A stretch of 64,000 nucleotides of DNA from Bacillota bacterium (GCA_017941085.1 JAGAXF010000020.1:36386-100385), one strand, 5' to 3'; numbered from the stretch's first letter, positions 12,728 to 63,799 are shown. Numbers and translations are program-made. The notes: generated by a model not told the origin, from the sequence alone.

Positions 12728-12880
12728 AATTGTTTCCTCCTAAATATTTCATTTGCTAAATAAAAAAATCATCTTGTGATATTTTTATTCTACCACAAAA
12801 TGATTCCTTGTAAACAAAAAATGATAATCAAAATCAAAAATTTTCTAGAATATTGAAATGTTAGGGTATTCTAACTATTA

Positions 12881-13396
12881 TCAGTCTTCTACAAGAACCC
12901 CAACTTTTCTTAAGGCATCACATACTCTGCCAAAGGTCTCGGCGTCCTGACAGCCAATCTTGTGCATATGGAGACCACCGGAAAGGGTGCTTAATGGTCT
13001 GTCTTCTCCGGACATTCTTTCAGCAAAGAGTCTTACATCGAACTTGGTGCTGATATCAAGCTTACCGGTTATCTCGCCATAAACTGCGTGGTCAATGGTT
13101 ACATCAATACAAGTAGCGCCACATTCAACAATGGCGTTTAATTCCTCTGCTACTCCTGCTGCATCATGTTTACAAACTATAACACCCACAAACGGGAAGG
13201 TGGCTCTGTCGTCACCCATGATATAGCCTCTGGATGTGGCTTCGATAAAGTGTCCTGAAGCTCTCAGGATAGATATATCGCCTACGATAATCTGTCTGCT
13301 TACATCAAACATGGATGCTAAGGATGAAGCGGTAAGCGGCGAACCTGCCGTTACCAGGGCACTTAAAATAGCATTGCGTCTTTCGCTTGCTGTCAT
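12881..13396 (-). CDS. NiaR/YrxA-like transcriptional regulator (HTH_11 + 3H domain)
   Basis: VSRQIIVGDISILRA HTH; CKH, IDHAVYG and HMHKI His motifs. Confidence 0.88.
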   Translation of the reverse strand: MTASERRNAILSALVTAGSPLTASSLASMFDVSRQIIVGDISILRASGHFIEATSRGYIMGDDRATFPFVGVIVCKHDAAGVAEELNAIVECGATCIDVTIDHAVYGEITGKLDISTKFDVRLFAERMSGEDRPLSTLSGGLHMHKIGCQDAETFGRVCDALRKVGVLVED

Positions 13397-54054: not shown

Positions 54055-54447
54055 TTATTTGCGCTTGCACTCCTTTGGTGTTACGCAGGTTCCCGTGGCT
54101 CTGGCCACTACTACAGGCTCTTCCAGGAAGTCTGCTGCAGAAGCGCTGATGTCAGGCCTTGTGGCAATAACCTTGCGAGCTTCAAAGGACATCTTTCTGG
54201 ATGTATTACCGATGGTTGTTATTTCTCCATATGCTTCGATATAATCTCCTGCATATACCGGTGCCAGGAATTCGATGTTATCGTAGGCGCAGAAAAGACC
54301 TTCGTCTCCGTCGCATTTAATTAAAAGCTCTGTGGCAACATCTCCAAAGAGATGAACCATATGTGCTCCGTCTACCAAATTACCGCCGTAGTGAGCATCC
54401 TTTGCTGACATTCTAAGTCTTAATGTTGATGTGATTTTGTCGCTCAT
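54055..54447 (-). CDS. kal: 3-aminobutyryl-CoA ammonia lyase (lysine fermentation, hotdog fold)
   Basis: [46 protein letters not shown] matches known Kal proteins; kam context. Confidence 0.92.
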
Positions 54448-54489: not shown

Positions 54490-54518
54490 ATTGTAGCACA
54501 GCTTAACAGATATTTGAA
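54490..54518 (-). promoter_or_regulatory. Putative sigmaA promoter of kal
   Basis: On the minus strand: TTCAAA-N17-TACAAT with extended TGn. Confidence 0.6.
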
Positions 54519-54564
54519 AGTTGCAAAAGCACATATTTTAATGTATTATTTCAACAAATAATCC

Positions 54565-54612
54565 TGAACCGATTTCTGTTCAAATATAAATACGTGAACC
54601 AATTACAATTCG
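54565..54612. promoter_or_regulatory. Paired putative operator boxes (TGAACC-N6-GGTTCA type) between kal and the regulator
   Basis: TGAACC-GATTTC-TGTTCA (54565-54582) and TGAACC-AATTAC-AATTCG (54595-54612). Confidence 0.65.
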
Positions 54613-54636: not shown

Positions 54637-56703
54637 ATGAAAATTCCTCCCACCATGATAGAAAGAGTGCTGGAACCCAAGCATGTACTACCTACCTCCG
54701 CCTGGAAACTAGATAACAGCAGATACCTTTTTCCCGGTGAAATGCGCATCGATGTAAAGCGCATACATATTGAAGGAACCAGCTTTAAGGAAATTTGCCT
54801 GGAGGGTGGCGAAAACGATCAGAAGATAAAGCAGAAGATCATGGATATCGTCATTAGAAGAGGCAAGCTCCATAATCCTGTAACAGATACGGGAGGTCTT
54901 CTCTTTGGTGTAATTTCTGAAATAGACAAAAAGTATCCCAATACCAAGAATTTTAAAGTGGGGGACGAGGTAATATGCAACGCCTCCCTGGCTTCTGTGC
55001 CTTTAAGCATTGACGATATAACCTCTATAGATCGCGCCTATGGACAGATATCTGTAGATGGATATGCCATTATTTCCCCGGAAATGCCGGTGCTTAAAAA
55101 GCCTAAGGATCTTCCTTTGAAACTGTTAATGTATACCCTGGATGAATCGGGAACCCTTTATAGAATCAGCACAACTGCAGTAGGTAAGAAAAGATTTCTG
55201 GTGGTAGGAAACAACCTGCTGTCCAATTTGCTCTTTGGTGTAGCTATAAGAAAGGTGGCCAGAAATGATGCAGAGGTGGTTTGCCTTTTGGACAGAAATA
55301 CCACGGCGGTCTTAAAGGGAGAAAGCATCGATCGTCTTACCAAAAAAATATTTACAGAGGTTCACTATGTGGATATTCTAAGGCCCCTGGAAACCTTGGA
55401 AACAATAAAGGATGGAGGGCTTTTTGATCTCTCTGTTAACTGCGTGGATATTACAGGGGCTGAAACCATAAATATTCTGGCAACAAAGAGCGGCGGTACC
55501 GTGGTATTTGCCAATCTTATAAACAACTACAATATTGCTCTCTATATTACAGAGGCCATTTCAAGACAGCTGGATATTAGATGTGCCGATGGTTATTTGG
55601 AGGCCTACGATGCCTTCGATTTTGAAATCGTAAGAGAAATGCTTCCCTATATAGAAGGGGCGGAGGAAACCGTTACACCCATGGGAGGAGATCCCGTTCA
55701 TCCCATCAGCAAAAAGAGTCAGATGATGAAAACTGCCGGTGCCAGGTTAAGTCTTATGGGTGATTTCATTTATGACAGCACCGCCATGCAAATGGTGATG
55801 GATGAAATTCTTACAGTATCCAAATACGATTGCAATGTTTTAATTACGGGAGAAAGCGGCACAGGAAAAGAAAAAATCGCCAGTATTATTTGCAAGAACA
55901 GCGACAGAAAACTGCAACCATACATAAAGGTAAATTGTGGATCCATTGCTCCAGAACTCTTTGAAAGTAAGCTCTTTGGCAAAGAAGGAGGAAGACGTGT
56001 TCCCAATGAAAAGGGATTCCTGGAACAAGCGGAAAACGGTACTGTATTCTTGGATGACATTGGAGAGATGCCGCCGGAAATGCAGATAAAGCTTCTCAGG
56101 GCAATTCAGGACGGGGAATACTTTAGACAGAATGGAGCCACGGCGGTAAAAATGAATGTAAGACTGATTTCCGCCAGTAGAAAGGATTTGGAAGAATTAA
56201 TAGATAAGGATACATTTAGAAGGGATCTTTACTATCAATTGAATGTGGTAAGAATTAGAGTTCCTGCCCTTAGAGAAAGGACCGCCGATATACCCGGACT
56301 GGTAGATCATTTCCTTGAGGAATATGGAAAGAAATTCGGAATTAAGAGAACCATCAGTGAAGACGCCGTTGATTATCTATGTCAATCCGACTGGCCCGGT
56401 AATGTAAGAGAGCTGGAAAATGTGGTTCAGCGTATTATGATAGGGGCCACCAGCGAACAAATAAGCCTAATCGATGTAATGAAGGAAATGCATAGTGATG
56501 TCTTTGATGTAAGCATAGCGGGAATGTCTGAAGAGCTGGATGAAAATATTGAAGAAGTAAATATGGAAACCATGGTGGAGAATTTTGAGAAAAACATCAT
56601 TAGACATGCTTTGGAAAAATACGGTTCCACCAGAAAGGCGGCCAAGGCCATAGGAGTAAGCCAGACTCAGCTGGTAAGAAAGAAAAATAAATACGGCCTT
56701 TGA
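54637..56703 (+). CDS. Transcriptional regulator: Kdd-like (pseudo)enzyme domain + degenerate NtrC-type AAA+ domain + TyrR/Fis-like HTH
   Basis: Residues 1 to about 340 align by eye with Kdd. GESGTGKE Walker A, VNCGSI, FLDDIGE and WPGNVRELEN are present. HTH STRKAAKAIGVSQTQLVRK. No GAFTGA. Confidence 0.88.
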   Translation: MKIPPTMIERVLEPKHVLPTSAWKLDNSRYLFPGEMRIDVKRIHIEGTSFKEICLEGGENDQKIKQKIMDIVIRRGKLHNPVTDTGGLLFGVISEIDKKYPNTKNFKVGDEVICNASLASVPLSIDDITSIDRAYGQISVDGYAIISPEMPVLKKPKDLPLKLLMYTLDESGTLYRISTTAVGKKRFLVVGNNLLSNLLFGVAIRKVARNDAEVVCLLDRNTTAVLKGESIDRLTKKIFTEVHYVDILRPLETLETIKDGGLFDLSVNCVDITGAETINILATKSGGTVVFANLINNYNIALYITEAISRQLDIRCADGYLEAYDAFDFEIVREMLPYIEGAEETVTPMGGDPVHPISKKSQMMKTAGARLSLMGDFIYDSTAMQMVMDEILTVSKYDCNVLITGESGTGKEKIASIICKNSDRKLQPYIKVNCGSIAPELFESKLFGKEGGRRVPNEKGFLEQAENGTVFLDDIGEMPPEMQIKLLRAIQDGEYFRQNGATAVKMNVRLISASRKDLEELIDKDTFRRDLYYQLNVVRIRVPALRERTADIPGLVDHFLEEYGKKFGIKRTISEDAVDYLCQSDWPGNVRELENVVQRIMIGATSEQISLIDVMKEMHSDVFDVSIAGMSEELDENIEEVNMETMVENFEKNIIRHALEKYGSTRKAAKAIGVSQTQLVRKKNKYGL

Positions 56704-56755
56704 TAATAGTTTTAAATAGTTTTCCCGGACAGCTAAAAGTCAGCAAAATAATAGT

Positions 56756-56805
56756 TGAACCAATAATGGTTCAACTATTTTTGTATGTGAACCAAATTTA
56801 GCTCA
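56756..56805. promoter_or_regulatory. Paired putative operator boxes upstream of kdd
   Basis: Perfect TGAACC-AATAAT-GGTTCA (56756-56773) and TGAACC-AAATTT-AGCTCA (56788-56805). Confidence 0.7.
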
Positions 56806-56850
56806 CTATAAATTTTTGGCAAAAATTAGCCATTTTCTAAAGCTTTGCCA

Positions 56851-56879
56851 TAGACTAGATTTTTCCCTCATTCTATAAT
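56851..56879 (+). promoter_or_regulatory. Putative sigmaA promoter of the kdd-kam operon
   Basis: TAGACT-N17-TATAAT. Confidence 0.65.
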
Positions 56880-56962: not shown

Positions 56963-58027
56963 ATGAAAAAGGGAGGAAATCCTTACGGAACACACAGAGT
57001 TATTTCACCAAAGGGTGTACTGCCACAGCCGGCAGACGTTATCGATAACGATATGGAAATCTATGATAACGAGATTAAGATTGATGTTAAAACCCTTAAC
57101 ATTGACTCCGCATCATTTACATCCATAGTAGATCACGCCTGTGGCAAGAAGCCTACCGATGATCTTAGCGATGCAGACATTCAGTCCATCAAAGATACTA
57201 TGATGGGCATCGTAGAAAAGGCCGGTAAGCATAAGAATCCTTGGACAGGATCCGGCGGCATGCTTATTGGAACAGTGGAGGAAATCGGACCTGAGTGGAG
57301 GGGTGACCTTAAGGTAGGCGACAAGATTGCAACTTTGGTATCCCTTTCTTTGACACCCCTTGTAATAGATGAGATTTTGGAAATGAGACCTGCCATCGAC
57401 CAGGTTGATATTAAGGGACATGCAATTCTTTTCCAGAGCGGTATCTATGCAAAGCTTCCTGATGATATGCCTGAAGGACTTGCTCTCTCCGCATTGGACG
57501 TTGCAGGTGCACCGGCCCAGGCAGCAAAGCTGGTTCAACCGGGAATGAAGGTTATGGTTATCGGTGGTGGCGGCAAGTCCGGACTTCTTTGCCTCTATGA
57601 AGCAAAGAAGAGAGCTGGTGTTACAGGTCAGGTAATCTGCGCTGCCGGTTCCCAGAAGTCTGAAGACAGAGCAAGAAATCTTAATCTGGCTGATGATTAC
57701 TTCCATCACGATGCCACAGATGCTGTGGGTATGTATGAAAAGGTTATGGAACTTACCAATGGTGAGCTTTGTGACCTGGTAATTAACTGCGTAAATATCG
57801 AGAATACAGAAATGGCTTCCATTCTCTGCACAAAGGATGGAGGAAGAGTATACTTCTTCTCCATGGCTACCAGCTTCACAAAGGCTGCTCTTGGTGCTGA
57901 AGGTGTTGGCAAGGACGTAGAGATGATCGTAGGTAACGGCTATACAAAGGGTCATGCTGAAATTACACTTCAGGTTCTTAGAGAGCATGAAGGCATCAAG
58001 AAGCTCTTTGAAGAAATGTATGCATAG
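56963..58027 (+). CDS. kdd: L-erythro-3,5-diaminohexanoate dehydrogenase
   Basis: YGTHRVISPKGVLPQ, GKHKNPWTGSGGML, ALDVAGAPAQ, IGGGGKSG and VYFFSMATSFTKAALGAEG motifs. Confidence 0.93.
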   Translation: MKKGGNPYGTHRVISPKGVLPQPADVIDNDMEIYDNEIKIDVKTLNIDSASFTSIVDHACGKKPTDDLSDADIQSIKDTMMGIVEKAGKHKNPWTGSGGMLIGTVEEIGPEWRGDLKVGDKIATLVSLSLTPLVIDEILEMRPAIDQVDIKGHAILFQSGIYAKLPDDMPEGLALSALDVAGAPAQAAKLVQPGMKVMVIGGGGKSGLLCLYEAKKRAGVTGQVICAAGSQKSEDRARNLNLADDYFHHDATDAVGMYEKVMELTNGELCDLVINCVNIENTEMASILCTKDGGRVYFFSMATSFTKAALGAEGVGKDVEMIVGNGYTKGHAEITLQVLREHEGIKKLFEEMYA

Positions 58028-58106: not shown

Positions 58107-59369
58107 ATGGCAACCAGAAATTGGAAAGACATCCCTTTGTTTAAGGATGTTACGGACGAACAGTGGAACGACTGGCACTGGCAAGTATCCCATAGACTAT
58201 CCACAGTGGAAGAGATTGCTCAGGTTGTGAATCTAACGGATCAGGAGAAGGAAGATATCGAAAAGGTTCTTGGTGGATTCAGAGTAGGAATCACTCCCTA
58301 CTATGCATCTTTGATGGACCCCGACGATCCAAGAGATCCGGTGAGAATGCAGGCAGTTCCCACATTGGCAGAAATGCATAGATCCGAGGCTGATGATGCT
58401 GATCCTCTCCACGAGGATGCAGATTCTCCGGCTCCGGGACTTACACACAGATATCCGGACAGAGTGCTTTTCCTGATTACAGATCAGTGCTCTATGTACT
58501 GCCGTCACTGTACCAGAAGAAGACTGGCAGGAGAAACTGACGGTGCCAGATCCAAGGAAGATATCGAAGCATGTCTGGAATACATTAGAAAGACACCACA
58601 GGTAAGAGACGTTCTTCTCTCCGGCGGCGATGCACTTCTTGTAGAGGATTCCACATTGGAATACATCATAAGCGAGCTTAGAAAGATTCCCCATGTGGAA
58701 ATCGTAAGACTGGGATCAAGAACCCCGGTGGTTATGCCCATGAGAATAACCGATGACCTGGTTAATATGCTTAAGAAGTATCATCCTATTTGGCTCAATA
58801 CTCACTTCAACCATCCAAAGGAAATGACTGAGGATGCAAAGGAAGCCTGCAGAAAGCTGGCAGATGCCGGTATTCCGCTGGGAAATCAAAGCGTACTTCT
58901 TAGAGGAGTAAACGACTGTAAATTCATAATGATGGATTTGGTTCACGAGCTTGTTATGAATCGTGTAAGACCATACTATATCTACATCTGTGATTTGTCC
59001 GTAGGTATCGAACACTTTAGAACACCGGTATCTAAGGGAATTGAAATCATTGAAGGATTAAGAGGCCATACCTCCGGCTACTGCGTGCCTACATTTGTAG
59101 TAGATGCTCCCGGTGGAGGTGGTAAGACTCCGGTAATGCCGAATTATGTAATCTCCGAAACTCCGGATAAGATTATTCTGAGAAATTATGAAGGCGTAAT
59201 CACCACCTATACACAACCGAGATTACCGGCTCTGCCATGTAAGTGCGACTACTGCACCGGCAAGAAGAAATCCTTCTATCAAGGTGTTTCTGCCTTAGGT
59301 GAAGGACTGGAAATCAGATCTATGGAACCGGCAGGATTGGAAAGACACAAAAGAAACGAACATCATTAA
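58107..59369 (+). CDS. kamA: L-lysine 2,3-aminomutase (radical SAM, PLP)
   Basis: THRYPDRV, CSMYCRHC, LSGGD, HFNHP and DAPGGGGK motifs. Confidence 0.97.
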   Translation: MATRNWKDIPLFKDVTDEQWNDWHWQVSHRLSTVEEIAQVVNLTDQEKEDIEKVLGGFRVGITPYYASLMDPDDPRDPVRMQAVPTLAEMHRSEADDADPLHEDADSPAPGLTHRYPDRVLFLITDQCSMYCRHCTRRRLAGETDGARSKEDIEACLEYIRKTPQVRDVLLSGGDALLVEDSTLEYIISELRKIPHVEIVRLGSRTPVVMPMRITDDLVNMLKKYHPIWLNTHFNHPKEMTEDAKEACRKLADAGIPLGNQSVLLRGVNDCKFIMMDLVHELVMNRVRPYYIYICDLSVGIEHFRTPVSKGIEIIEGLRGHTSGYCVPTFVVDAPGGGGKTPVMPNYVISETPDKIILRNYEGVITTYTQPRLPALPCKCDYCTGKKKSFYQGVSALGEGLEIRSMEPAGLERHKRNEHH

Positions 59370-59508: not shown

Positions 59509-60537
59509 ATGGGACTTCTTTCAAGGATTTTAAAAGAGCATGGCGAATACAAGGCTATTTCCATTGTGGGAATGGCAAAAAATGCAGGGAAGACTACAGC
59601 CCTGAATTTCCTTATTGAAGAAGCCTATGATGAAGGAATAATACTTGGTATAACCTCCACAGGAAGAGACGGTGAAACGGTGGACCTGGTAACAGAAACA
59701 GAGAAACCAAAGGTATATCTTTACGAGGATACAGTGGTTTCCGTTCCCCGGCAGCTCTTTGATTTGGCAGAGGCGGGACTTGAGATTCTTTCTACCACCA
59801 ATTACAGAACTTCCCTGGGAGAGTTATTTCTTTGTAAGGTAAAGGACAGCGGGTATGTGCAGATTGCAGGTCCTGTTGCTTCAGCTGATACAAAGAAAAT
59901 GTACGAAGAAATGCTTTCCCTTGGTGTGGATCTGGTTCTAATAGATGGAGCCATAGACAGAAAGTCCGTGGCTGCACCGGAGTCCTCCGACGGAGTAATC
60001 TTATCCACGGGAGCCGTGCTTTCCAGGGATATAAAAAAGGTGGTAAGAGAAACTTCTCATGTGGTGGAACTATATTCCCTGCCGGAAGTAGAGGATGAAA
60101 AACTAAAGGAGATAATTAGGGAGAAGCTTAGTGAGGAAAGAATCCTTACCATTAAAGAAGACATGACCTATGAGGTGTTGGATTTAAAAACCGGATTAGG
60201 CAGTGGAAGGAAAATCAACGAGGCCATCTCCCAGGAAGTGAAATATGTTTTCCTGCCGGGGGCCTTTACAGGAAGCATAATGGGGGACATTGACCCGGCC
60301 AAGTTTAAGAATGTAGAGTTTATTCTAAAGGACCCCACCAGAATATTTATGGATTCAATTCTTTGGATGCAAATGAAGAAAAGGGGCCTAAAGGTAAAGG
60401 TATTAAAAAACATAAATGTATGTGCTGTTACGGTTAATCCCTTTGCTCCTGAAGGATATTCCTTTGATAGTGAAGTGTTGAGAGATAAAATGCAGGAGGC
60501 CCTGCCTCATATTCCTGTAATAGACGTAAGGAAATAG
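59509..60537 (+). CDS. kamB: Lysine 5,6-aminomutase reactivase subunit (KamB-like)
   Basis: SIVGMAKNAGKTT, TSTGRDGE and IDGAIDR motifs; position between kamA and the MutS-like gene. Confidence 0.8.
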   Translation: MGLLSRILKEHGEYKAISIVGMAKNAGKTTALNFLIEEAYDEGIILGITSTGRDGETVDLVTETEKPKVYLYEDTVVSVPRQLFDLAEAGLEILSTTNYRTSLGELFLCKVKDSGYVQIAGPVASADTKKMYEEMLSLGVDLVLIDGAIDRKSVAAPESSDGVILSTGAVLSRDIKKVVRETSHVVELYSLPEVEDEKLKEIIREKLSEERILTIKEDMTYEVLDLKTGLGSGRKINEAISQEVKYVFLPGAFTGSIMGDIDPAKFKNVEFILKDPTRIFMDSILWMQMKKRGLKVKVLKNINVCAVTVNPFAPEGYSFDSEVLRDKMQEALPHIPVIDVRK

Positions 60538-60586: not shown

Positions 60587-62230
60587 ATGAAAAGGGGAAG
60601 CAACAGAAGACTTTCAAATATTAAAACCAGAACCGAAACGGGTTTTGATTTTGTTGCTTCCAAGTTGGATATCATATGTCCCTTAGGGAAAAAGGCTCAG
60701 AAGGATGCCAAGGTTTTCTATCCGGGAGAAGAAGAACTGCTGGAGGAAGAGCTGGGAAAGGTGGAAGCCTTAAAGGCTTTGGCTGAAAAGGATTCTTCCA
60801 GGGTTGAAAAGATCAGAGAGATTTTACATTGCCTTAAGGATGTTACCTCATCCATTGAAAGGGCAGAGAATGACACCCTTACGGTAATCGAAATATACGA
60901 GATTAAATCTCTTCTTCTGTATATGGAATCCCTGGGAAAGGTTCTTGGGGAAGGGAACTCCAATATTCCGGAGGAATTTATTGTTAGGGATGCCTCAGAA
61001 GCCTTAAATCTATTGGACCCCAAGAAGGACAGAATAAATACTTTTTATATTTACGATGACTATTCTTCGGAGCTTGCAAATCTTAGGGCAAGAAAAAAAG
61101 AACTGGATGGAGAAATAAGAAAGCTTCAGAAGATTGAAAGAGACAGGATAAAGGAAACCCACGGAATCATTTTAACTCCCAAGTTTGACATAGTTATTCC
61201 CAAGTCTTCAGATAAGGTGGAATTGGCAAAAAGCATAAAGGAGCTGGAACAAATTGCCGAGGACTACAGTTCCATAACCTTTGCTCTGGCTATGATAGAA
61301 GGAATAGAGGAACTGGCAAAGGAAAGGGAGGACCTGAACCTAAGGATAGAAGAGGAAGAATTCCGGGTGAGGAAGGAACTGTCCGGTGAAATCGGAAAGC
61401 ATAAGGAACTTCTGCTGGATAACTGTGACAGAATAGGAAGACTGGACTACGTTCTTGCCAAAGCCATCTTTGCCAAGAATGAAAATTGCGTAAGGCCAAT
61501 TATTACCCGGGATCATTTAATCCATATTGAAGGCGGAAGACAGCTTCAGGTTGAATGGATTTTAAAATCCAAGGGAAAGGAATATATGCCCATTACCATG
61601 GAGCTTAATCAGGGAGTAACCTGTATAACCGGAGCCAATATGGGAGGAAAGACCATCAGCTTAAAACTGGCAGGCCTAATTCCCATAATGACCCAATATG
61701 GATATTTTGTGCCATGCGAAAAAGCTGCAATAGGCCTGTCCAACTTTGTTCAGATACTTATAGGAGACAGCCAGTCTGTGGAGAGAGGTCTTTCCAGCTT
61801 CGGAAGTGAAATGGAGGAGCTTAAGGAGATTCTGGACCATGCAGATGACAGATCCCTTATTCTGGTGGACGAGATTGCCAGCGGAACTAATCCGGTGGAG
61901 GGGTTAGCTCTTACCAGGAGCATCATCGATTATCTGGTGGACAAGCCATATATAACTTTGTTAACCACCCATTACGAAACGGTTACAAATAGCGAGAAAA
62001 TATGTAATATTCAAGTACGAGGGCTGGCGGAGGCGGACTTCAGAAAGCTGAACAGTGAACTTTCCAGGGCAAATAGGAGAGAGCGAATAGAGATAATCGG
62101 AAAGTACATGGACTATAGCCTGATTCCTGTGGAAACAGGTAAGGAGGTCCCCAAGGACGCCCTTAATATAGCAAGAATGCTGGGTCTTCCGGCTGAAATA
62201 ATAGATAGAGCATCAGAGTATATCAAATAA
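60587..62230 (+). CDS. kamC: Lysine 5,6-aminomutase reactivase ATPase (MutS-like, KamC)
   Basis: ITGANMGGKT, GLSSFGSE, LVDEIASGTNP and TTHY MutS-type motifs without a mismatch-binding domain; directly before kamD. Confidence 0.82.
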   Translation: MKRGSNRRLSNIKTRTETGFDFVASKLDIICPLGKKAQKDAKVFYPGEEELLEEELGKVEALKALAEKDSSRVEKIREILHCLKDVTSSIERAENDTLTVIEIYEIKSLLLYMESLGKVLGEGNSNIPEEFIVRDASEALNLLDPKKDRINTFYIYDDYSSELANLRARKKELDGEIRKLQKIERDRIKETHGIILTPKFDIVIPKSSDKVELAKSIKELEQIAEDYSSITFALAMIEGIEELAKEREDLNLRIEEEEFRVRKELSGEIGKHKELLLDNCDRIGRLDYVLAKAIFAKNENCVRPIITRDHLIHIEGGRQLQVEWILKSKGKEYMPITMELNQGVTCITGANMGGKTISLKLAGLIPIMTQYGYFVPCEKAAIGLSNFVQILIGDSQSVERGLSSFGSEMEELKEILDHADDRSLILVDEIASGTNPVEGLALTRSIIDYLVDKPYITLLTTHYETVTNSEKICNIQVRGLAEADFRKLNSELSRANRRERIEIIGKYMDYSLIPVETGKEVPKDALNIARMLGLPAEIIDRASEYIK

Positions 62231-62242
62231 GGAGAGAATTAA

Positions 62243-63799
62243 ATGAAGAGTAAGTTGAATCTGGACCCAAAGGTAGTGGAAAGCGCTCGCAATCACGCCA
62301 GAAATATTGCTCGTGATATGCAGGACTTTATAGACAGACATACTACCGTAAGTACCGAGCGTACTATTCTGAGACTCCTGGGAGTTGACGGAGTGGACGA
62401 TGTGGAAACACCTCTGCCTAATGTGGTGGTGGACCATATCAAAGAAGCAGGAGCCCTGCCCAGGGGTGTGGCCTACTGGATTGGTAATGCCATGATTCAG
62501 ACGGGCCTTAGTCCCCAGGAGATAGCAGAGAAGATTGCTGTTGGTGAGCTGGATATTACCAAGCTGGATACTGCATCGCCGGAGGAAGCAAAGGAAGCCA
62601 TTATGCCGGCGGTTCATGCATCCCTTCATAGAATCAAAGAGCAGACTAAAAAGCGTGAAGAATATCTGGAAAGATTAGGAGAAGGTCGTCAGCCATACCT
62701 TTATGTAATTGTAGCCACCGGTAATATCTACGAAGACGTTATTCAGGCTCAGGCTGCAGCGAGACAAGGTGCAGACATTATAGCTGTAATTAGATCTACC
62801 GCTCAATCTCTCTTGGACCACGTTCCCTACGGCCCAACCACTGAAGGCTTTGGTGGAACCTGGGCAACCCAGGAGAACTTTAAAATCATGAGAAAGGCCC
62901 TGGACGAGGTGGGAGAGGAAGTAGGCAGATACATAAGACTCTGCAACTATTCCTCCGGTATGTGTATGCCTGAAATCGCTGCCATGGGTGCCTTGGAGAG
63001 ATTGGATGTAATGCTGAACGATGCCATATACGGAATTCTCTTTAGAGACATCAATATGCAAAGAACCATCGTTGATCAATATATGAGCCGTGTAATCATC
63101 GGTTACTGCGGAATCATTTTCAACTCTGGTGAGGACAACTATCTCACTACCGATGACGCCTACGAGGCAGCTCACACCGTAACGGCATCTCAGTTTATAA
63201 ATGAGCAGTTTGCAGTTTTGGCAAATATTCAGGAATGGCAGATGGGATTAGGCCATGCCTTCGAAATGGATCCGGATATTGAAAACGGTTTCCTCTATGA
63301 ATTGGCTCAGGCGGTAATGGCTAGAGAAATCTTCCCTAAGGCCAGCCTTAAATACATGCCTCCAACAAAGTTCATGACAGGAAATATATACAAGGGACAC
63401 ATCCAGGATGCTCTCTTTAATCTGGTGGCAGTTTGGTCCGGCCAAAGCCTGCAGCTCCTGGGAATGCTTACTGAGGCAGTACATACTCCCCATATGCAGG
63501 ACAGATATCTATCAATAGAAAATGCCAACTATATCTTCAACAACTGCCGTGACCTGGGTGAAGAAGTTGAATTTAAGGAAGGCGGTATTATCCAGACCAG
63601 AGCTCAAACAGTTCTTAAGAAGGCTGACGAGCTGCTGGCTGAAGTTGAAAAGGATGGACTCTTTAGCACCATCGAGCAAGGTAAATTCGGCGGAGTCAAA
63701 CGACCAAAGGATGGAGGCAAGGGCCTTGAGGGAGTTTGCACCAAGGACGATAAATATTTCAACCCCTTTATTCCATTGATGCTGGGAGGTGAAGAATAA
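62243..63799 (+). CDS. kamD: D-lysine/L-beta-lysine 5,6-aminomutase alpha subunit
   Basis: MKSKLNLD..HTTVSTERTILRLLG, YVIVATGNIYEDV, IRSTAQSLLD and YMPPTKFMTGN motifs. Confidence 0.96.
   Translation: MKSKLNLDPKVVESARNHARNIARDMQDFIDRHTTVSTERTILRLLGVDGVDDVETPLPNVVVDHIKEAGALPRGVAYWIGNAMIQTGLSPQEIAEKIAVGELDITKLDTASPEEAKEAIMPAVHASLHRIKEQTKKREEYLERLGEGRQPYLYVIVATGNIYEDVIQAQAAARQGADIIAVIRSTAQSLLDHVPYGPTTEGFGGTWATQENFKIMRKALDEVGEEVGRYIRLCNYSSGMCMPEIAAMGALERLDVMLNDAIYGILFRDINMQRTIVDQYMSRVIIGYCGIIFNSGEDNYLTTDDAYEAAHTVTASQFINEQFAVLANIQEWQMGLGHAFEMDPDIENGFLYELAQAVMAREIFPKASLKYMPPTKFMTGNIYKGHIQDALFNLVAVWSGQSLQLLGMLTEAVHTPHMQDRYLSIENANYIFNNCRDLGEEVEFKEGGIIQTRAQTVLKKADELLAEVEKDGLFSTIEQGKFGGVKRPKDGGKGLEGVCTKDDKYFNPFIPLMLGGEE

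Follow-up and report, generated by a model that had tools for sequence, protein, structure and literature searches.

The 64,000-nucleotide stretch of a Bacillota bacterium analysed here (GCA_017941085.1, JAGAXF010000020.1:36386-100385; the window) carries, among genes of lysine fermentation, a regulator of 688 aa (54637..56703, plus strand) that consists of a sensor resembling the pathway's own enzyme Kdd (L-erythro-3,5-diaminohexanoate dehydrogenase), a degenerate AAA+ domain of the sigma-54 type, a lid and a helix–turn–helix (HTH) domain. We suggest, at a probability of roughly two in three, that this protein is an atypical sigma-54-independent enhancer-binding protein (EBP) which controls kal and kdd-kamABCDE through its enzyme-derived sensor and which descends from a sigma-54-dependent EBP. 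Sigma-54-independent control is the best reading because the locus has no -24/-12 promoter and carries sigma-A-type promoters with conserved operators. Since the regulator and its target promoters have both lost the features required for sigma-54, the protein most likely acts on ordinary promoters.

The first-pass annotation of this DNA had described the N-terminal domain as Kdd-like along its length, and this is borne out by BLASTP, which aligns 344 residues with the adjacent Kdd (56963..58027) at 29% identity (E 2e-42). The NCBIfam model Lys_ferment_KDD (NF052381) matches residues 9-173 of the regulator, but at 132.8 bits the score falls short of the 200 required of the enzyme. Both by sequence and by fold, the domain is nearer to Kdd than to generic medium-chain dehydrogenases/reductases (MDR). 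A search of PDB sequences with residues 1-345 returned only the Kdd structures 7DL0, 7DL1, 7DL3 and 7DL7 (E 1e-24 to 9e-26), with no MDR dehydrogenase at E ≤ 1; Foldseek placed an AlphaFold model (pLDDT 90.3, pTM 0.89) close to the same four structures (E ~1e-28, TM 0.70-0.86; for 7DL0_B, E 3e-28 and TM 0.86), whereas generic MDR dehydrogenases gave E ≥ 1e-13 and TM of about 0.45-0.55.

Where Kdd has the Rossmann loop IGGGGKSG, the regulator reads VVGNNLLSN, a degeneration recognised at first pass; the GNNLLSN form (aa 191-197) is conserved throughout the window's close clade. When the 188 positions with a conservation of 95% or more among 88 Kdd enzymes from the window's bacterial family were compared with 125 regulators, 37 were found to be retained and about 150 changed, and many enzyme-invariant positions hold another residue which is equally conserved in the regulators (e.g., GNNLLSN and Y324). 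Such alternative but equally conserved residues speak for a new function under constraint rather than for decay. Glu306 is retained; it is equivalent to Glu310 of 7DL3, and the Kdd residue at this position has been reported to touch the NADPH amide (PMC9902596). These comparisons support the view that the sensor domain is a full-length paralogue of the pathway enzyme with a distinct, strongly conserved surface, and we infer that both catalysis and cofactor binding have been lost in it. In the distant members P0143, P0148, P0164, P0180 and P0207 (29-35% identical), a G-rich Rossmann loop (GAGGRSG, GAEGKIG, GASEKVG) occurs together with canonical GAFTGA, and their sensors may still bind NAD(P)(H).

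Downstream of the sensor (aa 1-345, 54637..55671), Pfam assigns aa 378-540 to Sigma54_activat (PF00158, E 4e-51), within an AAA+ core of aa 378-545 (55768..56271), aa 546-620 to AAA_lid_14, and aa 646-688 (56572..56700) to HTH_50 (E 5e-14; 52 bits vs 24.5 bits for HTH_8), which confirms the TyrR-like type of HTH proposed at first pass. The top NCBIfam match for the C-terminal half is PrdR, with 271 bits well under its cut-off of 795, and the TyrR model NF008085 scores 243.8 bits, under its cut-off of 576. The first 370 residues had no Pfam match, and neither Pfam nor NCBIfam matched an ACT or PAS domain in the regulator, the N-terminus of which is Kdd-like.

The AAA+ motifs were read directly and compared across 139 homologues. 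Walker A (GESGTGKE) is intact in the regulator. In place of FFGYEKGAFTGAxxxGKKGYFELA it has the L1 loop LFGKEGGRRVPNEKGFLEQA; the loop itself (GKEGGRRVPNEKG) is 3 residues shorter than the canonical one and shares no residue of GAFTGA, and the replaced segment spans aa 446-465 (nt 55972-56031). Walker B reads FLDD rather than FLDE, sensor I ISASRKDL rather than ISATNRDL (Asn to Arg), and the arginine-finger region FRRDLYYQL rather than FRRDLYYRL (second finger, Arg to Gln). The replaced GAFTGA, the FLDD and the Gln had been noted in the first-pass annotation and are all confirmed, as is the place of every other sequence feature that it listed; the loss of the sensor I Asn comes in addition. 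With key ATPase residues missing, ATPase activity has presumably been lost, and the sigma-54 contact is lacking as well.

When 1.8 billion representative proteins were searched with the N-domain by HMMER, about 20 clusters (50% identity) of regulators of 680-717 aa with a Kdd-like domain came up alongside enzymes of ~350 aa; nearly all of these regulators have GAFTGA or GSFTGA, GETGVGKE, FLDE and FREDLYYRL. About half of the close homologues (69-88% N-domain identity) retain the canonical AAA+ motifs. The remaining ones have unrelated hypervariable sequence instead of GAFTGA and are often altered at the Walker B Glu and at the second arginine finger (R to Q, H, I, K, A, Y, C or L). This GAFTGA-less group takes in the window protein together with all eight of its nearest relatives. 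Judged by this distribution of motifs, the family is ancestrally one of normal sigma-54 activators, and the state seen in the window is a derived and repeatedly evolved loss. The earlier proposal of a TyrR-like sigma-70 architecture thus stands in part. The AAA+ and HTH features are as described, and sigma-54 independence is the best reading for this lineage, but the architecture as such is not built for sigma-70: most family members have canonical GAFTGA, FLDE and arginine fingers beside canonical sigma-54 promoters, and the TyrR-type HTH is uninformative on the sigma factor because it is found family-wide. The most decayed members observed are the strongly degenerate orthologues of loci L099 (G177) and L101 (G083), with Walker A GDxSVGKE, an arginine-finger region FFANLYHAL or FLNELFNSL, and no kal or kdd nearby; they may have been recruited to another role.

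The promoters of the locus co-vary with the state of the regulator. We searched 301 genomes of the window's GTDB family, among which 166 had the Kdd-like domain and more than 130 the regulator; 120 loci were fetched and annotated, and 116 orthologous loci (99 GAFTGA-intact and 17 GAFTGA-less) entered the promoter comparison. Sigma-54 promoters were scanned as TGGCAY-N5-TTGCW on both strands, GG and GC being exact and at most one other mismatch allowed. For 91 of the 99 intact regulators such a promoter precedes kal, kdd2, kdd or kamA of the same locus; none is present in any of the 17 GAFTGA-less loci (0/17) or in the window locus. The pattern was also not found in L135 and L137, which belong to the window's own clade, where all members have lost GAFTGA. 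Its background amounts to 30 matches in 781 kb of coding sequence, both strands counted. On the best tree of the N-domain at least eight changes of state are needed, all inside one 61-row clade (support 96), and well-supported branches force at least three of them.

The decay of GAFTGA cannot be put down to a loss of rpoN: the window's genome has rpoN in an intact 484-aa frame (TIGR02395, 454 bits), and the gene is intact in 30/30 relatives tested, every GAFTGA-less one included. The same survey, suggested at first pass for co-occurrence with kam, kdd and kal, revealed a synteny kept across loci, namely kal (minus strand), regulator, kdd2 in some, kdd, kamA, kamB, kamC and kamD, with a kal homologue annotated divergently beside the regulator in most fetched loci. 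About 5 kb past the window end (L134 5380-13086, equal to G000:C13:105379-113085) lies an AtoS/AtoC-like two-component system whose EBP has GAFTGA. Its gene is followed by the canonical sigma-54 promoter TTGGCATGATTATTGCT, and beyond this come a second member of the Kdd family (a product of 348 aa that shares 49% identity with Kdd and scores 232 bits against NF052381) and a DctPQM TRAP transporter; the whole may form a separate sigma-54-controlled module for diamino acid uptake and oxidation. Since rpoN is intact and this AtoC-like EBP with its canonical promoter resides in the same genome, the loss of sigma-54 control is specific to the lysine circuit.

The additional Kdd paralogue kdd2 (65-70% identical to Kdd) is located between the regulator and kdd in L005 (10256-11302), L006 (10392-11438) and about 30 other loci, and in most of them it is driven by its own sigma-54 promoter; the window is without kdd2. 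Loss of kdd2 alone was considered as the driver of GAFTGA loss and proved only partly right: L021 and L023 retain kdd2 with its promoter converted, and L007 and L012 have lost kdd2 yet keep GAFTGA and the sigma-54 promoter at kal. A better rule is that GAFTGA is lost where no sigma-54 promoter remains anywhere in the locus.

The putative operators of the regulator were searched in about 100 loci as GAACC-N6-GGTTC with at most 2 mismatches and compared with shuffled sequences. In each of the three intergenic classes the box occurs more than 20 times as often as in the shuffles: 155 matches vs 6.8 between kal and the regulator (100 loci), 175 vs 7.6 between the regulator and the next gene, and 33 vs 1.1 between kdd2 and kdd; it is conserved in GAFTGA-less loci too. 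The window has two boxes upstream of the regulator, K1 GAACCGATTTCTGTTC (54566..54581, 1 mismatch) and K2 GAACCAATTACAATTC (54596..54611, 2 mismatches, 30 bp from K1), and two downstream of it, D1 GAACCAATAATGGTTC (56757..56772, perfect) and D2 GAACCAAATTTAGCTC (56789..56804, 2 mismatches, 32 bp from D1). D1 lies inside a 30-bp hairpin (56750-56779; 13-bp stem, followed by a T-run) directly 3' of the regulator's stop codon. That this palindrome is a terminator only is ruled out, as its core recurs upstream of the regulator and across the three intergenic classes; the hairpin may serve as the terminator of the regulator as well as its operator. The operator-inside-terminator layout also occurs in L021, L023 and L028. 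Known RNA elements (e.g., the lysine riboswitch) gave no match at gathering score in the regulatory regions.

Promoters were predicted by a consensus scan together with an analysis of geometry. For kal, the prediction is a sigma-A-type TTCAAA-N17-TACAAT (54490..54518, minus strand) with TG before the -10, the -35 of which lies 47 bp from K1; for the regulator, TTGCAA-N17-TATTAT (54521..54549, plus strand; -35 at 54521-54526), which leaves K1 and K2 between this promoter and the start codon and so suggests autoregulation; and for kdd-kamABCD, TAGACT-N17-TATAAT (56851..56879, plus strand), 46 bp downstream of D2. Between D2 and the kdd promoter there is a TGGCA-N9-GC (56817..56832, plus strand), one base short of sigma-54 spacing; it is either a relic or a chance match and, judged by consensus, does not represent a functional -24/-12 promoter. 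A remnant of the ancestral sigma-54 promoter of kal was recognised at 54521-54536 (minus strand) by box-anchored comparison with relatives having TTGGCAC-N5-TTGCA at an equal distance from the box: the -12 TTGCA is kept, and the -24 has changed from TGGCAC to TATGTG. The -12 survives because it doubles as the -35 (TTGCAA) of the regulator promoter on the opposite strand.

In the wider subclade, the main kdd is preceded by two boxes 32 bp apart and, after 46-48 bp, by T(A/G)GACA-N17-TATAAT. This layout was found in 25 of the 28 subclade loci analysed, with GAFTGA intact or lost, and likewise at kdd of L135 and L137; the spacer sequences visibly differ between loci despite the conserved distance from box to promoter. 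At kal, the GAFTGA-intact loci of the subclade have a box, 29 nt, TTGGCAC-N5-TTGCA and then a sigma-A-type promoter, i.e., a tandem arrangement.

The regulators that have lost GAFTGA remain under constraint, which is distributed unevenly over their domains. In pairs compared at equal N-domain divergence, with the L1 loop excluded, the identity of the AAA+ core is 67-81% in GAFTGA-less vs 82-91% in intact pairs, and that of the HTH is 87-96% vs 81-89%. The HTH is the most conserved domain among GAFTGA-less relatives, reaching 91-98% in the window's clade as compared to 78-87% for the N-domain. The P-loop lysine is always retained, and every GAFTGA-less homologue examined has a full-length open frame. 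By this measure the AAA+ domain appears relaxed yet not free, and DNA binding at least as constrained as before. Such a pattern argues against a dead relic and fits a role of the AAA+ domain in nucleotide- or ligand-dependent assembly without hydrolysis.

One can propose the following mechanism. The sensor, as a Kdd paralogue, would bind a pathway metabolite without catalysis, the simplest ligand being 3,5-diaminohexanoate or a close analogue, which is conjecture on our part. The TyrR-type HTH would bind GAACC-N6-GGTTC boxes, of which there is one pair upstream of kdd and another between kal and the regulator gene, with the two boxes of a pair spaced 30-32 bp. Ancestrally, and presumably still in most relatives, -24/-12 promoters would be activated by means of GAFTGA and ATP hydrolysis; in the subclade of the window, kdd-kam would already have acquired a sigma-A-type promoter and kal a tandem of sigma-54 and sigma-A promoters. 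The window's lineage would then have lost the remaining sigma-54 promoters, and its regulator the GAFTGA, the Walker B Glu, the sensor I Asn and one arginine finger, while the sensor, P-loop, lid and HTH probably stayed under selection. At present, ligand-controlled assembly on two boxes, centred near -89 and -121, may modulate sigma-A polymerase at Pkdd and Pkal, and the box-bound regulator may hinder its own promoter. We lean towards activation rather than repression because imperfect -35 elements are combined with upstream boxes at a phase-conserved distance.

Repression is the main rival, although we consider it rather unlikely. The ligand-free protein, perhaps in a higher oligomeric form by which DNA is looped or wrapped, would silence the sigma-A promoters of kdd, kal and its own gene until the ligand releases it. 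The position of K1 and K2, downstream of the promoter predicted for the regulator gene but upstream of the start codon, agrees with this, as do the perfect TATAAT -10 elements, with which the promoters may be strong unaided; TyrR and NtrX repress at certain promoters (PMC6158489), and an ATPase-dead ring could repress without energy. Yet a distance of 46-56 bp separates the boxes of kdd and kal from the -35 downstream of them, which leaves the promoters free of overlap, the -35 elements (TAGACT, TTCAAA) are imperfect as in activator-dependent promoters, and so strict a conservation of the spacing suggests that polymerase is contacted in a face-specific manner. A different doubt concerns the input. 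The Kdd-like domain might sense the enzyme and not a metabolite, pairing with real Kdd (as DhaR does with DhaK/DhaL), or might bind NAD(P)H, and in either way signal flux or redox state; the whole Kdd fold, the kept Glu306 with the reported NADPH contact of its equivalent (PMC9902596), and the G-rich Rossmann loop in distant members (GAGGRSG, GAEGKIG) speak for it. We hold this for a slim chance, given the GNNLLSN of the window's clade, which brings bulky residues to the pyrophosphate position, and the purely conjectural nature of an interface with Kdd.

It is very improbable that the regulator is still a sigma-54-dependent activator, one whose L1 loop works despite its non-canonical sequence and whose -24/-12 promoter is cryptic or distant. 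The presence of rpoN, the intact Walker A and the TGGCA-N9-GC upstream of the kdd promoter would allow it, and certain GAFTGA variants are tolerated in other EBPs (PMC6615313); however, the L1 loop is shortened, retains nothing of GAFTGA and is hypervariable among close relatives, the arginine finger, sensor I Asn and Walker B Glu are changed as well, the spacing of the TGGCA-N9-GC is one base off, and a correctly spaced -24/-12 occurs in 0/17 GAFTGA-less loci as compared to 91/99 intact ones. Equally hard to uphold is a decaying relic without a regulatory role, the operon being constitutive or under another factor. Several degenerate catalytic motifs, the hypervariable L1 loop, the AAA+ core evolving faster than in intact relatives, and locus L136, where the regulator and kal no longer precede kdd-kam, may be read in its favour. 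Full-length open frames in all GAFTGA-less homologues examined, the identities within the window's clade (78-87% in the N-domain, 91-98% in the HTH), the conserved boxes and the kept P-loop lysine contradict it.

Several points weigh against sigma-54-independent control by this regulator. All promoters here are predictions resting on consensus matches, and the constancy of the 46-bp spacing may in part be a legacy of an ancestral layout with tandem promoters and need not reflect selection. By the standard of classical class I or II activators of sigma-70 promoters, boxes near -89/-121 are remote, the evidence in hand does not tell activation from repression, so that activation is only leaned towards, and the searchable literature documents no case in Firmicutes of a sigma-A polymerase activator derived from an EBP. 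Eight GAFTGA-intact loci have no sigma-54 promoter by the strict pattern; six of these are partial or in other genomic contexts, and two (L018 and L040) are complete. Finally, the correlation between protein and promoter lacks phylogenetic independence: only 3-5 phylogenetically independent contrasts are available, and although all agree, the sign test, which is under-powered, is not significant (p 0.25).

With more reserve than for sigma-54-independent control itself, and on odds somewhat short of even, we suggest that the orthologous group represents a natural series leading from a sigma-54 enhancer circuit to a housekeeping-sigma circuit. In its first stage, which distant clades would represent, there would be sigma-54 promoters only. 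In the second, one regulator would act through GAACC-N6-GGTTC boxes on the sigma-54 promoters of kal and kdd2 and, at a fixed distance of 46 bp, on the sigma-A promoter of kdd-kam, and in the third, to which the window would belong, sigma-A promoters only are left, with GAFTGA and the ATPase residues changed. If this series is true, GAFTGA-intact orthologues are also dual-mode, acting on sigma-A polymerase from about -90 and -120, and an ATPase-dead AAA+ ring gated by an enzyme-derived sensor suffices for sigma-A control.

Among known systems, the closest are atypical EBPs without GAFTGA, i.e., TyrR of E. coli, PhhR of P. putida, HupR of R. capsulatus, HsfA of M. xanthus, NtrX of B. abortus and VpsR of V. 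cholerae, which are partners of sigma-70 polymerase or repressors (PMC6158489). The window regulator shares with them an EBP-type AAA+ domain that lacks GAFTGA and has a non-consensus Walker B, and its target promoters are without -24/-12 and, as predicted, housekeeping-sigma-like. With TyrR it shares an HTH_50-type domain, a 6-N6-6 palindromic operator and the control of amino-acid metabolism, although the operator is GAACC-N6-GGTTC and not TGTAAA-N6-TTTACA, and the N-terminal ACT and PAS of the TyrR family proper are absent. To our knowledge, the characterised examples named in the VpsR paper all come from Proteobacteria or Myxococcota, whereas the present regulator is from a Firmicute (Clostridia). 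Unlike these EBPs, it uses a whole enzyme paralogue as the sensor instead of an ACT/PAS or receiver domain, has boxes near -89 and -121, and has canonical sigma-54-dependent orthologues in sister genera, which makes the transition visible within one orthologous group.

PMC4428206, citing Zhang et al. 2014, presents KamR of Bacillus thuringiensis HD73 as a PAS-EBP and a sigma-54-dependent activator of the kamA promoter. As described there, KamR resembles the window regulator in being an EBP encoded beside, and controlling, a lysine 2,3-aminomutase locus, and it corresponds to the ancestral condition of our family, in which an EBP goes with a TTGGCAT-N5-TTGC promoter before kam genes. It differs, by the same account, in its PAS sensor, intact GAFTGA and -12/-24 promoter, where the window protein has a Kdd-like sensor and neither GAFTGA nor -24/-12. 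One-component EBPs such as XylR/DmpR (V4R), NorR (GAF), PrpR, AcoR and PrdR likewise have an N-terminal ligand sensor gating the AAA+ output and are encoded beside the catabolic operon that they regulate, but in the window protein the sensor has its homologue among the enzymes of the very pathway under control, and the AAA+ output has degenerated. In comparison with Kdd (EC 1.4.1.11), the sensor has the whole fold, the motif GK-x-x-NP-x-T-x-x-GG and 37/188 conserved positions, the counterpart of Glu310 among them; it differs in scoring below the NF052381 cut-off, in the replaced glycine-rich loop and in the fusion to AAA+ and HTH.

Full-text literature searches found no description of a Kdd-like sensor, and this regulator is unmentioned in a reconstruction of sigma-54 regulons in Clostridiales (PMC6615313) and in a 2025 cross-phylum survey (PMC12316311). 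The first-pass annotation had suggested that the architecture was uncharacterised, which needs to be qualified: we found no paper describing it, but the domain combination is already on record, since the Pfam family KDD_N (PF26370) has a pre-computed match on the protein cluster of the regulator and on homologues in the protein database. It is thus recorded, unnamed and unstudied, under generic database names such as "sigma-54 interaction domain-containing protein".

The regulator represents a clean, widespread and so far undescribed case in which a catabolic enzyme, Kdd, has been duplicated and the copy, apparently disabled, has been joined to a transcription factor, where it would serve as the sensor of the enzyme's own pathway, here the fermentation of lysine to butyrate and acetate by oral and gut anaerobes. 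The family also makes testable how sigma-54 enhancer circuits are converted into sigma-70-type ones. The VpsR authors proposed that atypical EBPs are perhaps an evolutionary link (PMC6158489). In the family described here, sister genera show canonical, mixed and fully converted states side by side, and their promoters have changed accordingly. We know of no close canonical orthologues for the characterised atypical EBPs. Because the states coexist, regulators and promoters can be swapped between close relatives, for example cultivable [Eubacterium] infirmum, whose strain NCTC 12940 has a GAFTGA-less orthologue, and Ihubacter or Emergencia isolates, in which the orthologue is intact. Together with the GAACC-N6-GGTTC operator, the regulator is a possible biosensor for lysine-pathway intermediates and a marker of lysine-fermentation loci in metagenomes.

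The neighbouring genes have the composition of a lysine-fermentation locus. Divergent from the regulator is kal (54055..54447, minus strand), which encodes a 3-aminobutyryl-CoA ammonia-lyase of 130 aa (NCBIfam NF052388, Lys_ferment_KAL, 193 bits, cut-off 160). On the plus strand, kdd (354 aa; NF052381 243.7 bits; PDB 7DL3, E 2e-107) is followed by the NCBIfam equivalogs kamA (58107-59369), kamB (59509-60537), kamC (60587-62230) and kamD (62243-63799), and kamE is placed after kamD, just outside the window. In the close GAFTGA-less relative L136 (3501-6509, protein P0008), a LysR gene and unrelated genes, and not kdd-kam, come after the regulator and kal, so that the regulator is retained apart from the main operon. 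L006 has a GC-rich and apparently structured kdd-kamA intergenic region of 300 nt (12738-13046) without an Rfam match above threshold; in the window this spacer is 79 nt and has no equivalent of the structured region. A different fusion of the Kdd enzyme fold is represented by P0240 and P0270 (1042-1063 aa), in which a Kdd-like domain is joined to what appears, judged by eye, to be an AMP-binding domain of the acyl/acetoacetyl-CoA-synthetase type.

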